IMG/VR virus record: IMGVR_UViG_3300034062_002027
Reading direction: 5' to 3' (one strand)
Length of the DNA: 64,000 nucleotides
Origin: a virus
Positions 5,377-56,002 of the stretch are shown in pieces; position 1 is the stretch's first letter; each line of letters opens with the position of its first letter. The notes under the pieces are model-generated. The model worked only from the letters and a program-made list of their open reading frames with translations. It made no database searches and was not told the DNA's origin. The position numbers and the translations under genes were made by a program.

Positions 5377-6870
5377 TTAATAGAAGGCGGTTTTGCGCCG
5401 GAAATAACGCTGCTCTTCGGGCTCATCAGATTCAATCTGAATGAATCCACCTCTTCTAAATCGAAGCAAGGCTTGGCTTGTTGAGTCCACAAGGTCGTCG
5501 TTTTCGCCGTTTGGGAACGCGGCCAACTCCTCCATCAACTCATCTGCCCATCGGGTTTCTGGACACCAAACAACTCCGGAAGCGAAAAGGTCTGAGATAG
5601 CGTTTACACGCGCAATCTTATCGCTTCCTTTGCCCGGTGTGTACTCCTCAAGCAAGATTCCTGTCTGCCGAAGCTCATAGATCAGCGGAGCGCCTGCCGC
5701 TTTCTTCTCCACAATCAGGGTATCTGGCTCCCATTCCTTGTACATCTCAAAAGCTTTTTGTTTAAGCTCAGGAAACTCCATGCGAGCTTTAAACGCATCC
5801 AGACAGATGATGTTGGTCTTCAGATTGCCCAAGCTGTCGGGGTGCTCGAAGATTCCCCACGTTGTGCAGGCTGAATAGTCTGCCCTGTTGGACTTTTCAA
5901 AGGCGGTATCCCAGCTTTGGATGATGTAATCGCACTGCGGAGCGGTGTCCGACTCCCAAATGCGCCACTGATCACGCTTAATGATCGCGCCTTCTTCGGA
6001 TGTGGGGTTCTGTTGGTACTGCGCTTCCCATTTGGCGACAGGAATCTCAGCCTTGATGGCTTCAAGTTCCGTTTTCTTCCAAAATCCGGGCCACAAAGGG
6101 GTTCCTGAGGGCAAAATCGCAGGAAACTCTATAACTTCCCAGTCATCCACGCCATCTTTTGAGGCATTTTTAAGAATCTGCCCAGTCAAATCTCTCTTTG
6201 ACCAGCGCGTCATCACGATGATGATCGCTCCCCCGGGCTGTAAACGCTGACGAGGGCCGGATGTGTACCACTCATACACGTTGTCATACACAGCGGGGTT
6301 GCCTTGCTTGGCCTCCTGCTCCGAATGCGGGTCATCAATGATCAGAAGGTCGGCTCCCTTACCCGTGACGGCTCCGCCGACACCAATAGCGAAGTAGTCG
6401 CCGCCTGCGTGGGTGTTCCAGCGACCTGCTGCCTTTGAATCAGAGGACAGTTTGGTGTCAAACACCCGGGAGAAGGCCTCAGAGGAGACCAAGTTCCTCA
6501 CCTTCCGGCCAAAGCCTACGGCAAGTTCTGCGGTGTGGGCAGTCTGGATGATCTTTTTCTCCGGGAATCTGCCCAAGAACCACGCAGGCAGGAGGTAGGA
6601 GGCAAACTCAGACTTGGTGTGCCGAGGAGGCATGTTGATGATGAGCCTCTTGAGTTGCCCCTTGGCAACTCTCTCAAAAGCATTCGCCATGATCTGGTGG
6701 TGCTTCCCAGAGATAAACCCCGGCCACATGTGGGAGGCGTAATAAATGAAGGACTCTTGGCACTTCTCCACTCTGTCGTACTCAAGAAGCATCATGATCT
6801 TGGCACGCTCCGCCTCATCCACAAGAGGAATCAATGCCCGGTAATCCTCCACCTCCTTACGGCTCATCAT
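5377..6870 (-). CDS. terL: terminase large subunit
   Basis: 497 aa. A Walker-A-like segment (NMPPRHTKSE) and a DLLIIDD Walker B are followed by a C-terminal RNaseH-like nuclease pattern (WDTAF...D.S). This is the typical terL layout, next to the portal gene. Confidence 0.9.
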   Translation of the reverse strand: MMSRKEVEDYRALIPLVDEAERAKIMMLLEYDRVEKCQESFIYYASHMWPGFISGKHHQIMANAFERVAKGQLKRLIINMPPRHTKSEFASYLLPAWFLGRFPEKKIIQTAHTAELAVGFGRKVRNLVSSEAFSRVFDTKLSSDSKAAGRWNTHAGGDYFAIGVGGAVTGKGADLLIIDDPHSEQEAKQGNPAVYDNVYEWYTSGPRQRLQPGGAIIIVMTRWSKRDLTGQILKNASKDGVDDWEVIEFPAILPSGTPLWPGFWKKTELEAIKAEIPVAKWEAQYQQNPTSEEGAIIKRDQWRIWESDTAPQCDYIIQSWDTAFEKSNRADYSACTTWGIFEHPDSLGNLKTNIICLDAFKARMEFPELKQKAFEMYKEWEPDTLIVEKKAAGAPLIYELRQTGILLEEYTPGKGSDKIARVNAISDLFASGVVWCPETRWADELMEELAAFPNGENDDLVDSTSQALLRFRRGGFIQIESDEPEEQRYFRRKTAFY

Positions 6871-10375: not shown

Positions 10376-10954
10376 ATGACTACAACCAACCGTGAAGACT
10401 GGCTTTCAGCCGCCGTGAGTGAACTGCGCCCCTTCTTCGATGCAGTGGGTGCGCCCCTGCCAGCGAACGTTCGTGTGACCTGTGGTTTCCCGTCCAACGC
10501 CAAGCGCTCGGGTGCGATTGGTGAATGCTGGGCAGACACTGCCTCCGCTGATCAGACCTTTGAGGTTTTGATCAGCCCTGTGCTGGATGACCCCTTGCGG
10601 GTGTTCGATGTGCTGGTGCATGAGTTGTGCCATGCCACTGCTGGGGCAATGAACCACGGTGTCAACTTCCAAAAGGTTGCCGCCTTGATGCACCTTGTGC
10701 CGAGCGCTGGCCCCAAGGGCTGGAAAGCCACTGGCCCGTCAGCCTCATTCATCCCTACATTCGGGTCAATCATTGACTCGCTGGGCTCATACCCTCATGC
10801 CGCCCTGACCATGTCCAACCGCAAGGTGCAGACCACAAGGATGCTCAAAGCAGTGTGCCCGTCCTGTGGGTACACCGTGCGCCTCACCTCTAAGTGGGCG
10901 GCCCTTGGCCTCCCTTCCTGCCCCGTCGATTCCGACACCCTCAACCTCGCTTAA
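10376..10954 (+). CDS. SprT-like zinc metallopeptidase-fold protein with C-terminal zinc ribbon
   Basis: 192 aa. It contains VLVHELCHATAG (HExxH) and CPSCGYTVRLTSKW...SCP. Confidence 0.7.
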   Translation: MTTTNREDWLSAAVSELRPFFDAVGAPLPANVRVTCGFPSNAKRSGAIGECWADTASADQTFEVLISPVLDDPLRVFDVLVHELCHATAGAMNHGVNFQKVAALMHLVPSAGPKGWKATGPSASFIPTFGSIIDSLGSYPHAALTMSNRKVQTTRMLKAVCPSCGYTVRLTSKWAALGLPSCPVDSDTLNLA

Positions 10955-10967
10955 TTGGAGACCTGCC

Positions 10968-12431
10968 ATGACTGACCTGCAACTCAAAATCAAAATCTTG
11001 GAATTGCCCATCGCAGTGGTGCTGGGTGCTCATGCCCAGTATGGGCGGGGCACTTTTTCGGGCACACCGTCCGAGCAAAAGTCCAAGGCCGCTGATTACC
11101 TGATCTCTTGCATTCGGGCCAACAACCTGACCCTTGATGAAATCAGGAACGCCACACCCGTGAAGCCCGTGTCCACATCCGCTCCATCGGTGGATGTGTC
11201 TGCCATCACCGCCGTTGCCAACCGTGCCGAGGCGTCTGCCCTTGATGCCCACTCCAGCCTGAGTGCCTTGCGACTCACCCTGCGGGATGTGGAGAGCCAA
11301 CTCACCTGTGAGATCAGAGACCGCCGTGATGACATCCTTGATGTCAAAGATGCCCTCGACAAGATGGCCTTCCAAGTCGGACAGGTTTCCATTGATGACC
11401 GTAAGGTTCAAGATGCCGTTGCCAAGGTGGTCGCTGATGCGTTTAAACCCTTTGAGCAAGCCGTGAAAGCCGCCGGGGCTCAGGCTGTAGTCGCAGACCT
11501 TGCATCTGTCCAAGTGGTGGATGTCAAAACCTGCTATGACGCTTTTGGTGTCGATGTGGTGGATACCAAGGGAAACCCCCTGAACGTGAGCATCTGGAAT
11601 GACCCGTCTGCCCCTGCGGTTGACCCTCACTTCATCTGGACTGATGACATTCTCCAGCACCTGATCTTGTCTCAGGACTCGGGTGAGTCGGTCTGGTTCG
11701 GTGGGCCAAAGGGTACAGGTAAATCCGAGACCGCCCGTCAGTTTGCCGCCGTTACGGGCCGTGCGTTTAAACGCATCAACTTCCACAAGTACACCAGCGC
11801 CGAGGATTACATCGGTGCGGTGGGTTTGGAAAACGGGCAGACCGTGTTCAAGCGAGGCGACTTCCTCGCCGCCTTTACGCACCCCTCGACCGTCATCCTG
11901 TTGGATGAGGTGACCAACGCTGACCCCGGTGAACTGGCCCCGTTGAACGGCTTTTTGGAGCCCAACAGCGCCGTGTCATTCGGTGGGTCTGTCCAGACCC
12001 GTGCCCCCGGTGTGCTGGTGTTTGCCGCTGACAACACGCTGGGCAATGGTGACGATACAGGCCGCTACGCTGGCACACGCCAGATGAACAGCGCCCTTGT
12101 TGACCGCTTCGCCCGTGTGGTGCAGTTTGACTACCTGCCCCTAGCCTCTGAGGTGGAAGCCTTGGTGCGTCACACTGGATGCAACCCCAAGCTTGCCCTG
12201 CACATCCTTGAGGCTGTCCATGTGGCTCGGCGTCAGGTGCTGACAGGCGAGGTGATAGATGCTCCCTCCATTCGGTCGGTGATCGCCTTCATTCGTGCCT
12301 TGCGTGTCTTGCCTGTAGACAAGGCATGGGCGACAACCATTGCCGCCCGTCAACCAGCCGAGTCCCTTCCGGGCTTGTCTGCTATCTATGCGTCTTGCAT
12401 CTGCGAGACAACAATCAACAACTACTTGTGA
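10968..12431 (+). CDS. MoxR/CobS-like AAA+ ATPase with ~230-aa helical N-terminal extension
   Basis: I chose the ATG at 10968 (GGAG SD). Walker A is GGPKGTGKS and Walker B is VILLDEV. The segment ALVDRFARVVQFDYLP is typical of the CobS/AAA_5 type. Confidence 0.8.
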   Translation: MTDLQLKIKILELPIAVVLGAHAQYGRGTFSGTPSEQKSKAADYLISCIRANNLTLDEIRNATPVKPVSTSAPSVDVSAITAVANRAEASALDAHSSLSALRLTLRDVESQLTCEIRDRRDDILDVKDALDKMAFQVGQVSIDDRKVQDAVAKVVADAFKPFEQAVKAAGAQAVVADLASVQVVDVKTCYDAFGVDVVDTKGNPLNVSIWNDPSAPAVDPHFIWTDDILQHLILSQDSGESVWFGGPKGTGKSETARQFAAVTGRAFKRINFHKYTSAEDYIGAVGLENGQTVFKRGDFLAAFTHPSTVILLDEVTNADPGELAPLNGFLEPNSAVSFGGSVQTRAPGVLVFAADNTLGNGDDTGRYAGTRQMNSALVDRFARVVQFDYLPLASEVEALVRHTGCNPKLALHILEAVHVARRQVLTGEVIDAPSIRSVIAFIRALRVLPVDKAWATTIAARQPAESLPGLSAIYASCICETTINNYL

Positions 12432-12438
12432 GGTTCCC

Positions 12439-14052
12439 ATGAACATCGAAACCATCCTGACCCGCCCCTCTGTGCGTGGTCTTGAATTCCGTCTCGGCCT
12501 TGAAGCCTACGCCCACAAGGTGGGGTCTGCCCTTGGCCTGTCCCGTGTGCGTGTCCTCTGGAGGGCAGATGTCCAGACTGCTGGCATCAATGCCAACGGC
12601 GACCTGTACTTGGCGGGTGTGCCTGATGATGCCAAGGTGAGCCGCGCCTTGGTGGTCAAGTACGCCGCCTATGTGGTGCATGAGTTGTTGCACCACAAGT
12701 ACACCGACTTTGATGTCATGTCCCCTGAACAGTACATTCGCACCCTGCACAATGCGGTGGAGGATGGCTGGATTGAGAACACCGGGATTGCCTCTGGCTT
12801 GCTGGGTAACATCGGCCCCCTGCTGGGTGAGATGATCGACACCATGACCCGTGAGGCTTTGGCGACCGTCAAGGATTGGAACGATCCCCGCCAGTACCCC
12901 TACATCCTCGCTGTGCATTGCCGTAAACACGCCACTGTCAAGTGCCCCACCAACCCCAAGTTGACCGCCATCTTCGATGAGGCCGCACGTTGGTGCTTGA
13001 CTGCAAAGGACAGCAACCAGACCCTCGCAATTGCCGAGTGGGTTTATGAGCAGATCAAGCAAGCCAGCAAGGATGAGCCCAAGGGTGATGGCAAGAAAGA
13101 CAAGGACAAGGACGGCAAGGACGGCCCAAGCAAGCCCTCAGACGGGCCTACAAGCCCCGATCAGCCCGAGGGTGAGGACAAGGGTGCAGACAAGGCCGAT
13201 AAGGGCTCTGACGGCCCCGCTGGCCCCGTGCAATCACCCGAGGGTGTCGAGGCCGACCCCGTGGAGCCCAAGCTTGGCGAGGGTGGCATTGCTGGCGCTT
13301 ACTCCACTGACGTTTCACTCAGGGATGAGCGCTTCCACCTGTCCAGCCGCACCATCCCTGACTTGGTCAACGCACCCGTCCCTGCCAAGCTTCGCTATGA
13401 AGTTAAGCGCCTGTTTGATGACTCGGGTCTGTCTGACTTCACCCGCAACCGCAAGGCCGGGGTTGTCAACATCCATGCCCTGCCAACAGTGGCCACTGGC
13501 AACGACCGTGTGTTTAAACGCCGCCTTGAGGTGGAGGGCATTGACTCTGCGGTGGTGATCTGCCTTGATGTCTCGGGCTCCATGTTTGAGGTGGAGTCTT
13601 GGAGACCAAAGCCCCTGATCGGCCCCGCTGTTCAGGCTTGCCGTGCCCTGCTGGAGACGCTGGATGCGGCTGGGGTCAAGACTGCAGTGCTGTGCTTTGG
13701 TGGGCAGATTTCAGTGCCCAAGGGCTTCAACAAGAACGTCAAACAGGCAAGCACCCTGCTGGGCACGGTACAGGCTGGCGGTGGTACGAACGACTACGCC
13801 GCCCTGCGCTACGCCCACCAGATGCTGGCCCAGCGCCCCGAGCGCCGCAAGATCGCCTTTGTGATCACTGACGGGTACGGCAAGCCTGATGCTGTGAAAC
13901 AGCAAGTCGCATCGGGTAAAGCCTTGGGTGTGACAACCATCGGCATCGGCATCGGTGCTGATGTGTCGTGGATATACGGGCAAGCAGTGACTGTCCGGGA
14001 CATTGCCGACCTCGGCAACGCAAGCTTCAAGCAGATCAAGCTTGCGGCATAA
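12439..14052 (+). CDS. zincin-like (HExxH) + vWA domain protein (CobT/DUF2201-type partner of the AAA ATPase)
   Basis: I chose the ATG at 12439. The N-terminal region has VVHELLHHKYTD. A K/D/G/P-rich disordered linker follows. The C-terminal vWA MIDAS pattern is VVICLDVSGSM...GGGTNDYAAL...IAFVITDGYG. Confidence 0.75.
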   Translation: MNIETILTRPSVRGLEFRLGLEAYAHKVGSALGLSRVRVLWRADVQTAGINANGDLYLAGVPDDAKVSRALVVKYAAYVVHELLHHKYTDFDVMSPEQYIRTLHNAVEDGWIENTGIASGLLGNIGPLLGEMIDTMTREALATVKDWNDPRQYPYILAVHCRKHATVKCPTNPKLTAIFDEAARWCLTAKDSNQTLAIAEWVYEQIKQASKDEPKGDGKKDKDKDGKDGPSKPSDGPTSPDQPEGEDKGADKADKGSDGPAGPVQSPEGVEADPVEPKLGEGGIAGAYSTDVSLRDERFHLSSRTIPDLVNAPVPAKLRYEVKRLFDDSGLSDFTRNRKAGVVNIHALPTVATGNDRVFKRRLEVEGIDSAVVICLDVSGSMFEVESWRPKPLIGPAVQACRALLETLDAAGVKTAVLCFGGQISVPKGFNKNVKQASTLLGTVQAGGGTNDYAALRYAHQMLAQRPERRKIAFVITDGYGKPDAVKQQVASGKALGVTTIGIGIGADVSWIYGQAVTVRDIADLGNASFKQIKLAA

Positions 14053-38030: not shown

Positions 38031-42704
<4,674 letters not shown>

Positions 42705-50043: not shown

Positions 50044-51420
50044 TTAAAATTTATTGAAAAACGGACTTAAAGCATAACCTACTTTTTGCTGTACGTTGGT
50101 GGAGATTGTTTGGCCGACTACACCGTTTCGCGGAACAAAATGTATATCGCCATTAGGCGCAAGGACGCCGCCAGCGTATGCGTCTAATATCGTGTAAACC
50201 AATGAATAAGTTGAGACTACTCCAGCAGCAGATATTTTCTGACCTCGGTTGGCGTTATAAGAAACAAAATGTATATCACCGTTGGGAGCAAGGACACCGC
50301 CAGCGTATGCCTCACTTCTTGTGTACACTAGCGAGTAGGTAGAGACTACACCCGCTGCTGATATTTTTTGGCCTCTGTTTGCGCTTTGCGGAACAAAATG
50401 AATATCACCATTTGGGGCTAGGACGCCGCCTTCGTATGCGTTTGATGCCGTGTACACTAGAGAGTAAGTTGAGACTACTCCAGCAGCAGATATTTTCTGA
50501 CCTACTACTGCGTCAAGTGGAACAAAATGTATGTCTCCATTTGGGGCTAAAACTCCACCTGCGTATGCTCCGCTTGCTGTGTAAACCAAGCTATACGTTG
50601 AAACAACTCCCGCTGCGGATATTTTTTGACCTACTGCTGCGCCATTAGGAACAAAATGTGTATCTCCGTTGGGAGCAAGGACGCCGCCTTGGTATGCTCC
50701 GTTTGCTGTGTAAACAAGTGAATAAGTTGAAACAACACCGGATGCAGAAATCTTCTGTCCTCGTCTGCCGCTAAGAGGCACGAAGTGAATATCTCCGTTG
50801 GGGGCGAGGACACCTCCGCTGTATGCAACTGATGTTGTGTAGACCAGTGAATAGGTTGATACAACTCCAGCAGCAGATATCTTCTGCCCTCTGTTGGCTG
50901 AATAAGGTACGAAGTGTATATCCCCATTAGGGGCTAAGACACCGCCAACGTATGCGCTTGCTGTTGTGTACACCAGTGAATACGTACTGACAATCCCACC
51001 CACACCATTGTTGTTGAACGGCACACCATTGACCACCCCGGCGTCAAGGTACTTCTTCAGGTTTGTCCACTCCACCAGATTGGTGCCGACCGATGAGTTG
51101 TCCGCTGTGGGCACTGTGCCCTGAGTAGCATCAGCCGGGTAGGTGGTGATAACGTCTTTATCGCCTGCGCTCCAGTTTACGGCAGCGTTGCTGTTGCTTG
51201 ATTCAAGGATCGTGGTGCGTGCCAGCGTTGTGCCAGAGGCGGTGTATGTGCCAATGCCGATTTCCCAGTCCGTACCGTCAGTCACGCTGTAGTACGTGGT
51301 GTTCCCATCCCCAACCACGGAGAAGTCTTGGAACCCATCAGCGGCTGTTCCCAGCGTGTACGTGCCAGTGCCCGTTGTGGTCGTTGTTGTCTTGACCCGG
51401 TCGTTCAGAACCAATGCCAT
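50044..51420 (-). CDS. tail fibre paralogue 1 with 7 x 43-aa propeller-like repeats
   Basis: 458 aa. The N-terminus is [24 protein letters not shown]. Seven units follow of the form [43 protein letters not shown]. It ends in FFNKF. Confidence 0.75.
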
Positions 51421-51429
51421 GGTGCGTCC

Positions 51430-52818
51430 TTAAAACTTGTTCAGATAGCTGCTCAGGCAGACATCGGATGGGAAGGGGATGGCGGGGCAGGTAGAGATTT
51501 TTTGACCTAAAGCGGCACTATGGGGGATAAAATAAATATCTCCATTAGGTGAGAGAATGCCGCCAATATAAGAACTTCCTGTTGTATAAACTAAAGAATA
51601 GGTTGAAACTACTCCTGCTGCTGATACTTTCTGGCCTCTTGCGGCGCTGAGTGGAACAAAATGAATATCTCCATTAGGGGCCAATAAGCCTCCTTGATAT
51701 GCGTTTCCAGCCGAATAAATTAATGAGTACGTAGAAACCACACCTGCCACTGATACTTTTTGCCCAATAAGATTATCTGTACTTGGAATAAAATGAATAT
51801 CCCCGTTGGGGGCTAGAACGCCACCAGTATAAGCACTAGATGCTGTATAAATTAACGAATAAGTTGAAACAACCCCCGCTGCTGATATTTTTTGACCAAC
51901 TTCTGCGCTTTTTGGAACAAAATGAATATCTCCATTGGGTGCTAAGACTCCGCCTTTATAAGCGCCGTTTATTGTATAAACTAAACTATAAGTAGAAACT
52001 ACGCCTACTGCCGATACTTTCTGCCCTTTATTTGCATCTTCTGGAATAAAATGTATATCCCCGTTAGGCGCAAGTACGCCGCCAGCATAGGCGCTTCCCG
52101 CTGTATAAACAAGGGAGTATGTAGAAACAACGCCAGATGAATTTACTTTTTGACCTCCGACGGCAAAAGCAGGTACAAAATGAATATCGCCATTTGCGGC
52201 CAATACACCACCTTTATAAGCATTTGCTCTTGTGTAAACAAGTGAGTATGTAGAAACAACTCCAGTTAAAGTGTTTATTTTCTGACCTATGTTGGCAGAT
52301 AGAGGAACAAAATATATATCGCCGTTAGGTGCGAGTACGCCTCCTGTATATGCTCCAGTTGTTGTATAAATCAAAGAATACGTACTAACAATCCCCGCTG
52401 TATCATTGTTATTAAACGCCACACCGCCGTTCACGCTGAGCTGGAGCTTCTTCTGGAAGTTCTGGAACGCAACGCCGTCCGTGCCAATGCTGCTGTTGTC
52501 TGCTGTAGCGTTTGCCAAGCCCGACGTTTCCGCAGGCAGGGGAATAAATACCGTCTTGTCACCAGCACCCCAGTTGACCAACGCACCGCTGTTGCTAGAT
52601 GCAAACACCTGTTGACGGCTCAGGGTCGTGCCCGATACCGTGTAAGTGCCGATCCCAACTTCCCAGTCAATATTGTTTGTAATGGTGTAGTAGGTTTGGT
52701 TGCCGTCGCCGACGTTGGTGAAGTCTTGGTAGCCAACAGAGGCCGCTCCAAGCGTAAGCGTGCCAGTCCCTGTGGTGGTCGTGGTGACCTGAACGCGATC
52801 TTTGAGTAAGAATGTCAT
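51430..52818 (-). CDS. tail fibre paralogue 2 (7 repeats)
   Basis: I chose the ATG at 52818 ([24 protein letters not shown]). 462 aa, with the same repeat architecture. It is the most AT-rich of the three copies and ends in YLNKF. Confidence 0.75.
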   Translation of the reverse strand: MTFLLKDRVQVTTTTTGTGTLTLGAASVGYQDFTNVGDGNQTYYTITNNIDWEVGIGTYTVSGTTLSRQQVFASSNSGALVNWGAGDKTVFIPLPAETSGLANATADNSSIGTDGVAFQNFQKKLQLSVNGGVAFNNNDTAGIVSTYSLIYTTTGAYTGGVLAPNGDIYFVPLSANIGQKINTLTGVVSTYSLVYTRANAYKGGVLAANGDIHFVPAFAVGGQKVNSSGVVSTYSLVYTAGSAYAGGVLAPNGDIHFIPEDANKGQKVSAVGVVSTYSLVYTINGAYKGGVLAPNGDIHFVPKSAEVGQKISAAGVVSTYSLIYTASSAYTGGVLAPNGDIHFIPSTDNLIGQKVSVAGVVSTYSLIYSAGNAYQGGLLAPNGDIHFVPLSAARGQKVSAAGVVSTYSLVYTTGSSYIGGILSPNGDIYFIPHSAALGQKISTCPAIPFPSDVCLSSYLNKF

Positions 52819-52820
52819 GG

Positions 52821-54206
52821 TCAGAACTTGTTCAAAAATGAGCTGAGGCACACGCCCAAGCCCAAAGGTTGACCGGGATTTGTGGAGATTGTTTGGCCCC
52901 TATTGGCAACGTCTGGAACAAAGTGTATATCACCGTTGGGAGCAAGAACACCTCCAGCGTATGTGCTTGTTGCTGTGTAGACGAGAGAGTATGTACTTAC
53001 AACCCCAGAGGCAGATATTTTCTGGCCTACGTTGGCACTAGCCGAAACAAAATGTATGTCTCCATTTGGGGCTAGGACGCCGCCTTGGTATGCGGATGTT
53101 GTTGTATAAACTAAAGAGTAGGTTGATACAACCCCAGATGGAGATATTTTTTGACCTTGGTTGGCGCTATAAGGCACAAAGTATATATCTCCGTTAGGAG
53201 CAAGCACGCCACCTTCGTATGCGGATGTTGTTGTATAAACTAAAGAGTAGGTTGATACAACACCTGTAGCTGAAATCTTTTGTCCAACAGCAGCATTTCT
53301 CGGGACAAAATGAATGTCTCCGTTGGGGGCGAGAACCCCACCAGCGTATGCGGCTGATTCTGTATAAACAAGAGAATACGTTGAAACAACACCCGCAACA
53401 GATATTTTCTGTCCTCGGTTGGCATTATACGGAACGAAATGAATATCACCGCTAGGTGCAAGGACGCCGCCTTGGTATGCGGTTGTTGTGGTGTAGACAA
53501 GCGAATACGTACTCACAACTCCAGAGGCAGAGATTTTCTGGCCTCTGTTTGCGCCTGAAGGAATAAAATGAATATCTCCGTTAGGGGCAAGCACCCCGCC
53601 TTGGTATGCGCCTGTTGATGTATAAACCAATGAATAAGTAGAAACTACTCCAGCAGCGGATATCTTCTGGCCTCTGTTGGCGCTACGAGGCACAAAGTAA
53701 ATATCCCCATTAGGGGCAAGTACGCCGCCAACGTATGCGCCCCCAGCATTTGTATAAACCAAACTGTAAGTGCTGACGATTCCGTTCGTGCCGTTGTTGT
53801 TGAACGTCTGCCCACCTACAACACCTTGGTTTAGCGCAGCCTGCAAAGCTGACCAGCCTGCCAGATCGGCGCCAATGTCCGAGTCGTCGCAAAAAGGAAT
53901 GCCCGGTTGAGTGACCGCCGAGGGTTGAGCGCACAGCACGTCCTTGGTTCCAGCACCCCAGTTCACCAGAGCGTTGGAGTTGGATGAGGCGTAGACCTGA
54001 TCTCGGCTCAAGGTGGTTCCTGACGCTGTGTACGTCCCCAGACCTGTTTCCCAGTTGATTTGGTCTGTGATCAGGTAGTACGTGGTGTTGGCGTCGCCAA
54101 TGGCGGAGAAAGCCTGATACCCAGTTGCAGCAGCGCCGAGCGTGAGTGTCCCCGTACCAGTCGTCGTGGTTGTGGACTTGACGCGGTTTTTGAGGACGAG
54201 AGCCAT
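52821..54206 (-). CDS. tail fibre paralogue 3 (7 repeats)
   Basis: I chose the ATG at 54206 ([24 protein letters not shown]), which overlaps the upstream stop by 1 nt. 461 aa, ending in FLNKF. Confidence 0.75.
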   Translation of the reverse strand: MALVLKNRVKSTTTTTGTGTLTLGAAATGYQAFSAIGDANTTYYLITDQINWETGLGTYTASGTTLSRDQVYASSNSNALVNWGAGTKDVLCAQPSAVTQPGIPFCDDSDIGADLAGWSALQAALNQGVVGGQTFNNNGTNGIVSTYSLVYTNAGGAYVGGVLAPNGDIYFVPRSANRGQKISAAGVVSTYSLVYTSTGAYQGGVLAPNGDIHFIPSGANRGQKISASGVVSTYSLVYTTTTAYQGGVLAPSGDIHFVPYNANRGQKISVAGVVSTYSLVYTESAAYAGGVLAPNGDIHFVPRNAAVGQKISATGVVSTYSLVYTTTSAYEGGVLAPNGDIYFVPYSANQGQKISPSGVVSTYSLVYTTTSAYQGGVLAPNGDIHFVSASANVGQKISASGVVSTYSLVYTATSTYAGGVLAPNGDIHFVPDVANRGQTISTNPGQPLGLGVCLSSFLNKF

Positions 54207-55252: not shown

Positions 55253-56002
55253 CTAAGTAACAACATCAACCCATGATGTTGACTGTGTATTGGTGATATT
55301 TTGCCAGTTGGCGTTTTGAATGTCATCCACTGGCTCCCAGAACCTTCTGCCTGATTGCGTTTCGGTGATTGCCGCCGTCTCTGACCGACTCACGTTGTAC
55401 GCCGTAATTGCAAATTCCTGTGCTGTCAGCGCCGCCAACTCGTTGATTGAGGCAACAAACGCGACAGCCGCTTCTTGTGTGGCCGTTGCCTCTGTGGTCT
55501 CATCAACCGATACCAAAAACTCAGCCGCGCCCTCTTCCGCAGAAGTAATTCCCACGGACTCGTCAACCGACTCATTGAAAGCGGAGCCAACAATTTGATT
55601 GTCAGTAACCCCAGCGCTCTCATTTACCGATAGGGCAAACGTGGCTGCAATAATTTGATCTTCTGCAATCGCCACACTTTCGGAAACTGCAAAAGCAAAT
55701 GTGGCTGCAACCGCTTGGGATTCAGCAAGGCCCGAAGTTTCCGACACAGAGACTGTATACGCCACTACGGCAGTTTGGTCTTCTGCAATACCCGCACTCT
55801 CCGCAACAACAGCCGAAAACCCCACGGCAACAGACTGATCTTCTGTAGCTGCAACGCTCTCAGCAACTGACAGCGCAAATGTAGCAACAACTGTCTGAAC
55901 TTCTGTGATTGAGACGGACTCAGATACGCTGTCGCTGAAAGCAGTAATACCGCCCCAGCCACCAGCGCCCCAAGTTCCTATGCCCCAAGCACGTCCGGCC
56001 AT
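55253..56002 (-). CDS. fibrous protein with ~10 x 19-20-aa acidic repeats
   Basis: 249 aa. The N-terminus is MAGRAWGIGTWGAGGWGG. Repeats of the form F-x-x-S-V-x-E-S-x-x-I-x-E-D-Q-x-x-x-A follow. Confidence 0.6.
   Translation of the reverse strand: MAGRAWGIGTWGAGGWGGITAFSDSVSESVSITEVQTVVATFALSVAESVAATEDQSVAVGFSAVVAESAGIAEDQTAVVAYTVSVSETSGLAESQAVAATFAFAVSESVAIAEDQIIAATFALSVNESAGVTDNQIVGSAFNESVDESVGITSAEEGAAEFLVSVDETTEATATQEAAVAFVASINELAALTAQEFAITAYNVSRSETAAITETQSGRRFWEPVDDIQNANWQNITNTQSTSWVDVVT

Follow-up and report, generated by a model that had tools for sequence, protein, structure and literature searches.

The K1F endosialidase tailspike carries a six-bladed beta-propeller distally in a trimeric tail protein, where it contacts a surface glycan. 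A similar arrangement is found in Gp45 of Staphylococcus phage phi11, a trimeric tail protein whose five-bladed platform is likewise distal and in contact with a surface glycan (PMC4901313). In the virophage DSLV2, three consecutive paralogous fibre genes are conserved across the lineage, and their products form a 1:1:1 heterotrimer, as established by co-expression and pull-down (PMC12724248). Here we analysed a 64,000-nucleotide (nt) stretch of viral DNA (IMG/VR record IMGVR_UViG_3300034062_002027; hereafter the window), which covers almost the entire genome of an uncultured phage from lake water and contains three tandem fibre genes, C, B and A in window order. We consider it likely that these genes encode paralogous receptor-binding tail-fibre subunits with a hypervariable propeller face, and that their blade arrays are swappable within a co-inherited unit made up of the trio and a glycosyltransferase gene. 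Gp45 and the K1F tailspike differ from these proteins in blade number and family and are encoded by single genes whose products form homotrimers, and neither has been described as having a tandem triplet, repeat hypervariability or a linked glycosyltransferase.

Open reading frames (ORFs) confirmed the three adjacent genes of 458, 462 and 461 amino acids (aa) that had been recognized in an initial annotation of the window (Table 1). ORF finding extended B and C upstream to GTG codons; homologues begin at the ATGs used in the initial annotation. A, B and C each start with M(ALV/TFL)... Seven repeat units, each opening with [IV]VSTYSL, were present in every protein, as had been claimed, and a blade profile built from the 21 units matched seven times in each; the claimed uniform length of 43 aa holds for 17 units but not for the remaining four, which have 44 aa (B1, B5, C1 and one more by register). 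All three proteins end in NKF, in agreement with the proposed conserved C-terminus (FFNKF, YLNKF or FLNKF). At the DNA level the repeat has a period of 129 nt with 67-74% matches (Tandem Repeats Finder). One metagenome contig (run X9) joins positions 50206 and 50465 and thereby omits 258 nt, exactly two blades, either because the assembler collapsed the repeats or because gene A naturally occurs in a five-blade form. On the plus strand, antisense to the fibre genes, many blades (50211-53408) contain promoter-like matches (TTGA.A, 16 nt, TATTTT) spaced by multiples of 129 nt; these are a by-product of the AT-rich repeat and do not point to promoters.

The shared N-terminal adaptor proposed for the three proteins matched fibres of cultured podophages. 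Residues 1-97 were 47-61% identical (tblastn) to the N-termini of annotated tail fibres of the Roseobacter phages CRP-6 and CRP-603, Methylophilales phage Venkman and HTVC023P-type phages including 023Pt_psg01, annotations that are themselves predictions. Genomes of the cultured podophages carry this anchor on just one fibre gene each, and some of these genes end in an S74 chaperone domain, which is typical of trimeric fibres. Judged from sequence, A, B and C would be virion components that bind a receptor. A search for solved structures related to the anchor returned none, even at E<=10. In Pelagibacter phage HTVC023P the anchor is a stand-alone protein of 151 aa (gp58; L003, 8001-8456), followed by four genes of 443-491 aa; anchor and distal part can therefore be separate polypeptides.

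The number of tandem genes was highly conserved. In a first scan of 75 IMG/VR loci and one JGI contig, in which clusters were counted only with at least 400 nt on both sides, 51 of 54 clusters held exactly three genes, and two of the three exceptions stop no more than 460 nt from a contig end. Six more clusters from a second scan comprised four triplets, one triplet with an interrupted third gene and one true doublet, bringing the triplets to 55 of ~58 informative clusters (~95%). Triplets were found in ~60-kb podophages with the 95-aa anchor, in 84-238-kb contigs with a different anchor of ~58 aa, and in contigs whose genes hold 14/14/7 or 14/20/18+ blades. The lineages concerned number at least two, probably three, and differ in their anchors. 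In the first lineage, N-terminal domains had their nearest neighbour at the same gene position in 81/81 cases and C-tails in 79/81, and the C-terminal ends were position-specific (LGVCLSSFLNKF at position 1, xDTCLSSYLNKF at position 2 and a tail of its own at position 3). All three genes were intact and under strong purifying selection across more than 50 loci; pseudogene-like paralogues, which the initial annotation had named as an outcome that would refute it, were not seen. As read from these sequences, the three genes have long been inherited together, in a fixed order and with termini specific to each position, and a conserved four-gene cassette takes the place of the multivalent module of independently acquired fibres that had been envisaged. 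Two large-phage contigs (L128, 8213-10516; L078, 8204-9976) have a third fibre gene that breaks off after five blades; between its halves L128 carries an ORF of 169 aa, and the last three blades with an NKL tail form a separate ORF. A mobile insertion or intron-like element is a possible cause of the interruption.

The constancy of the trio bears on how the three proteins are used. Phages with several receptor-binding proteins are well known, and A, B and C could be independent, alternative fibres, each a homotrimer, displayed together or mixed so as to address several receptors, with copies gained and lost freely. The variable faces of the three genes differ within one phage, and a doublet and a singleton exist, both points in favour of this model. 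We nevertheless regard it as possible but rather doubtful, given that ~95% of complete clusters hold three genes across different anchors and genomes of 60 to 230 kb, with conserved gene order and position-specific N- and C-termini. Moreover, cultured phages have only one fibre gene with this anchor in each genome, and three homotrimers would therefore compete for one docking site. The proposal that chains A, B and C together form one heterotrimeric fibre bearing three different propellers has a reasonable prospect of being correct, if somewhat short of probable; it draws on the analogy with DSLV2, and the fixed copy number, the position-specific termini and the tight coupling of the genes fit it. 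The DSLV2 fibres differ in having an unrelated fold (like the T4 gp37 tip), a length of 196-247 aa, no propeller and no linked glycosyltransferase (PMC12724248).

Several lines of evidence support the seven-bladed propeller fold predicted in the initial annotation. The Pfam family Vgb_lyase (PF24684; gathering cut-off 50 bits) matched C with 81.7 bits (E = 5.1e-23) and A with 70.7 bits (E = 1.2e-19); B was not listed above the Pfam filter and shows the same repeat pattern as A and C, with which it aligns throughout. An AlphaFold2 model of C, made from an alignment of 28 homologues, reached a mean predicted local distance difference test score (pLDDT) of 78.6 (87-97 over most blades, 74-86 in the last) and contained 28 strands in seven groups of four. 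Foldseek aligned ~300 residues of this model to Vgb lyase (2z2n, 2qc5) with template modelling (TM) scores of 0.88-0.90 (0.90 for 2z2n), a root mean square deviation of 2.4-2.5 A and E ~1e-19, followed by designed Pizza, NHL and PknD propellers. These matches and the model support a seven-bladed beta-propeller for the repeats of A, B and C. In the model, no partner strands come before the first strand, IVSTYS (143-148), and none follows the seventh repeat, suggesting that the ring would be closed by the usual 'velcro' arrangement, with the first strand completing the last blade.

Comparison with the nearest folds revealed both likeness and departure. Vgb lyases (PF24684; 2z2n, 2z2p, 2qc5) are likewise seven-bladed with repeats of ~42 aa and share the motif register (GD(I/V)WF..(A)N.I.(R)I...G in Vgb, GDIHFVP..A..GQKIS..G in the phage), whereas the phage propeller is fused to a fibre anchor, has blades that are far more alike and is only 17-20% identical to Vgb. 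The PknD sensor domain, NHL propellers and Pizza resemble it in their high symmetry and near-identical blades. They differ in having six blades and no phage context, and Pizza is man-made; the phage symmetry is natural and kept by selection with synonymous sites near saturation. The best viral fold matches were collagen-repeat proteins of giant viruses (Hokovirus A0A1V0SG21 and Klosneuvirus A0A1V0SKR9; E 7e-24, 23% identity), in which such a propeller follows a trimer-forming collagen stalk; these are single large genes of eukaryotic viruses, and their structures are only predicted.

Column entropy across the 21 blades showed that 33 of 43 positions are near-invariant. Variation had been expected at 3-4 positions per blade; its concentration in two loops held up, but the number was too low, as the 21-blade alignment contained eight highly variable positions (11-13 and 16, in the loop that precedes the GGVL strand; 31, 32, 34 and 35, in the loop that follows FVP) and two moderately variable ones (41 and 43, in the SAAG turn). 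The order of elements per repeat in the AlphaFold2 model is VSTYS, a long variable loop, YxGGVL, a tight turn, the next strand, a variable loop, GQKI and a tight turn. Because successive antiparallel strands alternate faces, both variable loops would share one face of the modelled propeller and the two invariant turns the other. By analogy with Vgb and NHL repeats, GGVL would be the innermost strand, and the variable face would therefore be the canonical 'top' face. The ~60-70 variable residues of each modelled propeller on this face probably form the receptor-binding surface.

The frame and the variable positions evolve very differently. Paralogues within the phage were only 20-33% identical at variable positions, and comparison with the closest relative (L005) gave 94-95% identity for the anchors of C and A and 81% for that of B, 83-89% for the frame and 33-39% for the variable positions. 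Blades within a gene were 68-79% identical in protein and 66-70% in DNA. Between them, 51-57% of the codons for identical residues differ, as do four-fold sites at a rate of 0.59-0.66 (full saturation would give 0.69-0.71), and the longest exact DNA word shared by two blades was 45 nt (median 11). Recent duplication or gene conversion was rejected as the cause of blade likeness on account of these near-saturated four-fold sites and short shared words. With synonymous sites near saturation, the near-identity of the blades is therefore old and maintained by purifying selection, which is unusual for propellers.

Such conservation could also be read as the signature of a strict multivalent lectin, in which conserved Ser, Thr, Tyr, Asn, Asp, His, Gln and Lys residues between blades would form seven identical sugar sites, as in tachylectin-2 or Photorhabdus PLL-type proteins, while the variable loops tune access. 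Many of the residues conserved from blade to blade are indeed polar or aromatic, and the 33 of 43 conserved positions have been held by selection despite near-saturated synonymous sites. We consider this unlikely, as none of the top 50 fold matches was a known lectin propeller and identical sites in every phage would leave the wholesale turnover of loops between near-identical phages unexplained. The label 'possibly lectin-like' given to the module earlier must also be set beside its nearest folds, which are Vgb lyase, NHL and PknD-type propellers and not known lectin propellers.

Alternatively, and in our view improbably, the propellers might act as a lyase, lactonase, esterase or depolymerase and break down a host surface polymer; the six-bladed propeller of the K1F tailspike is an enzyme of this sort. 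The best relatives of the fibre propellers studied here in sequence and fold are the streptogramin B (virginiamycin B) lyases, and some homologues are labelled lactonase in the source databases. Streptogramin B lyase proper was rejected, however, because scores against NCBIfam NF000022/NF000096 were 69.4 and 67.7 bits (cut-off 600) at a Vgb identity of 17-20%. The strongly conserved residues recur in every blade, as frame residues would, and in the alignment with Vgb the conserved His of GDIHF falls on the repeat Trp (GDIWF), a structural position. Propeller enzymes usually carry their active site on one face, here the face of the variable loops, and in the structure of Vgb with quinupristin the active site reportedly lies on one face, which in the phage propeller is hypervariable. 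The loop positions of the catalytic and metal-binding residues of Vgb, which we take to be a His/Glu set, are Gly or hypervariable in the aligned blades, in a HMMER alignment that stops before the last blade.

We next consider the exchange of blade arrays between related phages, a comparison that had been suggested for the locus and that showed near-identical flanks around maximally different arrays. Propellers had their nearest neighbour at the same gene position no more often than chance predicts (27/81 cases), and all propellers were ~72% identical whatever their position or genome. Across 515 orthologous pairs, blade DNA identity stayed flat at ~69% while anchor identity climbed from 60% to 97%, and it reached 100% only in duplicate contigs. 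Even in 29 orthologous pairs with anchors 90-97% identical in DNA, the blade arrays averaged 69.6% (maximum 77%), the same value as in unrelated pairs. Loci L015 and L037, for example, had identities of 0.91-0.95 in their N-terminal parts, 0.73-1.00 in their C-tails and 0.92 in the glycosyltransferase, but only 0.61-0.67 in the blades of all three genes; L012 and L026 showed a similar pattern, and in phages with flanking parts 91-97% identical all three arrays were only 61-75% identical. Because of this mosaic pattern we infer replacement by recombination, and the sequences are most simply read as exchange of whole arrays drawn from an allele pool that is old, diverse and rather low in GC.

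The boundaries of the exchanged cassettes, at the neck and the C-tail, coincide with an island of low GC at third codon positions (GC3). The middle gene had been described as more AT-rich, with separate acquisition or faster drift suggested as the reason; its GC is indeed lower (0.455 in B against 0.499 and 0.505 in the other two), but the drop in GC3 is common to all three arrays of a conserved triplet. GC3 fell from 0.66-0.68 ahead of the first blade to 0.27-0.38 within the arrays and recovered to 0.65-0.80 in the C-tails of genes C and B; in gene B the blades had 0.27, compared with 0.66 in its own N-terminal part. Change points fell after codons 145 (C), 134 (B) and 137 (A), that is, at the first blade, and the contrast was family-wide, seen in 112/113 genes of one lineage and 61/65 of the other (173/178). 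Separate acquisition of the middle gene alone was rejected, given the same break at the first blade in all three genes and the whole family, and so was amino-acid composition as the cause, since GC3 was lower for every amino acid. The cause may be either a low-GC allele pool or a mutation or codon bias specific to the repeats. Targeted hypermutation by a diversity-generating retroelement or comparable machinery, instead of exchange of old alleles, would account for variation limited to defined codons on a fixed frame and for AT-rich third positions, but is extremely improbable: outside the genes the 64-kb window contained no copy of blade DNA that could serve as a template, and no two repeats in the window were more than 77% identical, the scanned ORFs (some of those in the window) had no reverse-transcriptase match, grounds on which a retroelement was rejected, the synonymous sites of frame codons also differ between close relatives, and the fibre region recurred as the same allele at 0.97-0.99 word share in lake-water metagenomes from 2020 and 2024.

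The fibre genes are followed by a predicted glycosyltransferase-methyltransferase fusion gene that the initial annotation had missed. Its N-terminal half matched a PHROG glycosyltransferase (E 7.6e-8), with a Pfam GT2 match below the cut-off, and its C-terminal half matched class I S-adenosylmethionine (SAM) methyltransferases (Methyltransf_23, 27.4 bits against a cut-off of 27, and also Methyltransf_11), for which relatives reach 7e-20. Other relatives carry TylF-, Methyltransf_24- or RMNT-type domains in this half instead, domains typical of sugar O-methylation. The AlphaFold2 model of the fusion was poor (pLDDT 52); its weak fold matches (E ~3e-3) were all GT-A, several of them protein glycosyltransferases, which hints at a GT-A fold for the N-terminal half. 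A homologue lay directly 3' of the fibre genes in 53 loci from both main lineages, and among triplet loci with enough downstream sequence the linked glycosyltransferase was absent in only one. Even the doublet and the singleton are followed directly by a glycosyltransferase-only form of 268-277 aa. The fusion showed 93-98% identity among phages with anchors sharing only ~70%, and 48-73% between lineages; its own protein cluster spans 8 contigs, the longest of 64,590 nt.

A precedent for such an enzyme is A064R of PBCV-1, a virus-encoded glycosyltransferase-methyltransferase that decorates a virion protein and combines GT-A-type sugar transfer with SAM-dependent sugar O-methylation in one polypeptide (PMC9614988). 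A064R differs in having two glycosyltransferase domains and in acting on the capsid protein of a eukaryotic virus (PMC9614988), and no sequence similarity between it and the phage fusion was found. By this analogy the linked enzyme might glycosylate and methylate the fibre, a suggestion we make with reserve; alternatively, it may act on a host glycan.

In our preferred reading, in which A, B and C are receptor-binding subunits, the N-terminal anchor would fix each chain to the tail and be followed by a short neck helix, the seven 43-aa repeats as a closed propeller, and a conserved tail of ~16 aa ending in NKF. The 33 frame residues of each blade would provide rigidity and ~8-10 would be free to vary, with the variable face of the propeller presented to the host surface. 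Specificity would change by replacement of whole blade arrays between neck and C-tail, and the highly conserved glycosyltransferase(-methyltransferase) gene would travel with the trio. No enzymatic or lectin activity is assigned to the propellers; receptor binding is the best reading of the sequences, and the cassette is a receptor-binding protein kind of phage system with several unexplained features. Some observations weigh against it. Binding through the variable loops alone does not explain the extreme conservation of the frame, and the placement of these loops on one face rests on the strand order of a model and on general propeller topology. The donor allele for any swapped array was not found in the sample, and the triplet phages have no cultured relative. 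The exceptions to three include a doublet (L102, 5956-9007) and a singleton with a different N-terminus (L074, 5806-7873), and three genes are therefore not strictly required. Finally, triplet positions showed no detectable match between the two main lineages; because they are unmatched, the trio is either ancestral with an eroded signal or has arisen more than once.

The propeller family is large and almost confined to viral or unbinned contigs. A word-indexed search gave more than 2,533 relatives, and an exhaustive search with the propeller only gave 4,419 cluster representatives at E<=0.001 and 213 at E<=1e-30, of up to 2,747 aa. Only 5 matches, all on contigs of metagenome-assembled genomes, were found among 185,579 species genomes, and a host or cellular origin was rejected because these lie on four distinct contigs, three of them below 2.5 kb and one, of 257 kb, bearing two matches. 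Architectures include the 460-aa form, ~670-aa forms with a LamG domain, chains of 14 to 20 blades, and ~716-aa forms in which anchor residues 34-95 are replaced by a second, different propeller-like insert. In this last group, represented by some position-1 or position-3 genes (L001, 6435-8603; L032, L035, L043 and L048; 716-729 aa), the first ~33 anchor residues are kept and precede an insert of ~255-320 aa with faint SGL/lactonase matches and then seven blades. Among cultured phages only those of Cylindrospermopsis have a distant propeller (35-40% identity), which in Cr-LKS4 is a single copy ending a protein of 1,130 aa. No description of the family was found in the searched literature.

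Table 1. Coordinates of the three fibre genes, their parts and the two flanking genes in the window
Feature	Position	Strand	Basis
Fibre gene C, position 1 of triplet, 461 aa	52821-54206	-	ORF and repeats, Pfam, AlphaFold2, Foldseek
Gene C, anchor, aa 1-95	53922-54206	-	
Gene C, linker with short helix, aa 96-142	53781-53921	-	
Gene C, seven blades, aa 143-444	52875-53780	-	
Gene C, C-tail ...GLGVCLSSFLNKF, aa 445-461	52824-52874	-	
Fibre gene B, position 2, 462 aa	51430-52818	-	ORF and repeats; 7 matches to blade hidden Markov model
Gene B, anchor and linker, aa 1-142	52393-52818	-	
Gene B, seven blades, aa 143-445	51484-52392	-	
Gene B, C-tail ...SDVCLSSYLNKF	51433-51483	-	
Fibre gene A, position 3, 458 aa	50044-51420	-	ORF and repeats, Pfam
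Gene A, anchor and linker, aa 1-142	50995-51420	-	
Gene A, seven blades, aa 143-443	50092-50994	-	
Gene A, C-tail	50047-50091	-	
Predicted fusion of GT-A-like glycosyltransferase (~aa 1-265) and SAM methyltransferase (~aa 285-451), 451 aa	48670-50025	-	PHROG, Pfam
Upstream fibre-like gene, 345 aa	54206-55243	-	phrog_31660 tail fiber, E 1.5e-9

The source phage is probably a lake-water podophage of ~64.6 kb of the HTVC023P/DSL-LC04 type. Its large terminase (gene at 5377-6870) is 50-58% identical to those of DSL-LC04 and the pelagiphages HTVC023P and HTVC027P, the nearest terminases found, and no near-identical DNA was found among cultured phages. Contigs from public runs over the fibre locus were either identical to the window or repeat-collapsed chimeras. 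On the minus strand, the order is the 345-aa fibre-like gene, C, B, A and the glycosyltransferase-methyltransferase gene, with the lysis genes (endolysin and holin) farther downstream. The fibre genes are tightly packed on one strand, with spacers of -1, 2 and 9 nt, the first being the TAATG in which the stop of the 345-aa gene overlaps the start of C. This gene had been called a fourth, unrelated fibre, and both parts of that description were upheld, by its PHROG tail fibre match and by the lack of sequence relationship to the trio (BLASTP against C, E 0.87); it lies upstream of the trio in 43 loci of the same lineage.

Other features of the window were noted in passing. Just upstream of the 345-aa fibre-like gene, a protein of 249 aa (55253-56002, minus strand) contains ~10 imperfect repeats of ~19 residues (A.F..SV.ES.....E.Q) by eye, with no DNA-level repeat by Tandem Repeats Finder and no PHROG match. 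A long series of 6/12/18-nt repeats (38217-39100) lies within the ORF at 38031-42704 (minus strand), whose 1,557-aa product also matches the RTX calcium-binding nonapeptide; the run is probably a low-complexity acidic, Thr-/Ser-rich stretch of an internal or ejection protein. A polyvalent protein of 2,303 aa with ADP-ribosyltransferase (ART-PolyVal) and LPD38 domains (27395-34306, minus strand) adjoins other very large ORFs of the structural block, and at 10866-14052 (plus strand, opposite to the structural genes) a MoxR-type AAA ATPase adjoins a VWA/CobT-like protein.

A fuller scenario, in which a heterotrimer carries three propellers, the linked enzyme decorates a motif present in every blade, and arrays are swapped from a low-GC pool common to unrelated lineages, is quite unlikely as a whole. 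If true, the enzyme-decorated motif would account for the freezing of 33 of 43 residues across 21 blades and for the stronger conservation of the enzyme relative to other tail genes, and the locus would be a natural repeat-scaffold binder system comparable to leucine-rich-repeat receptors. Independently of that scenario, receptor-binding proteins decide which bacteria a phage kills and are almost unknown for freshwater phages. A natural frame that is rigid and near-symmetric, combined with a variable face that can be replaced, is of interest both to protein engineering and to efforts to read host range from sequences. Several questions can now be put to experiment: whether tailed phages build heterotrimeric fibres, whether a phage glycosylates its fibre with its own enzyme, and how entire binding modules pass from one phage lineage to another. 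Together, the fixed trio and the linked sugar-modifying enzyme point to a step in assembly or maturation that has not been described for phage fibres.

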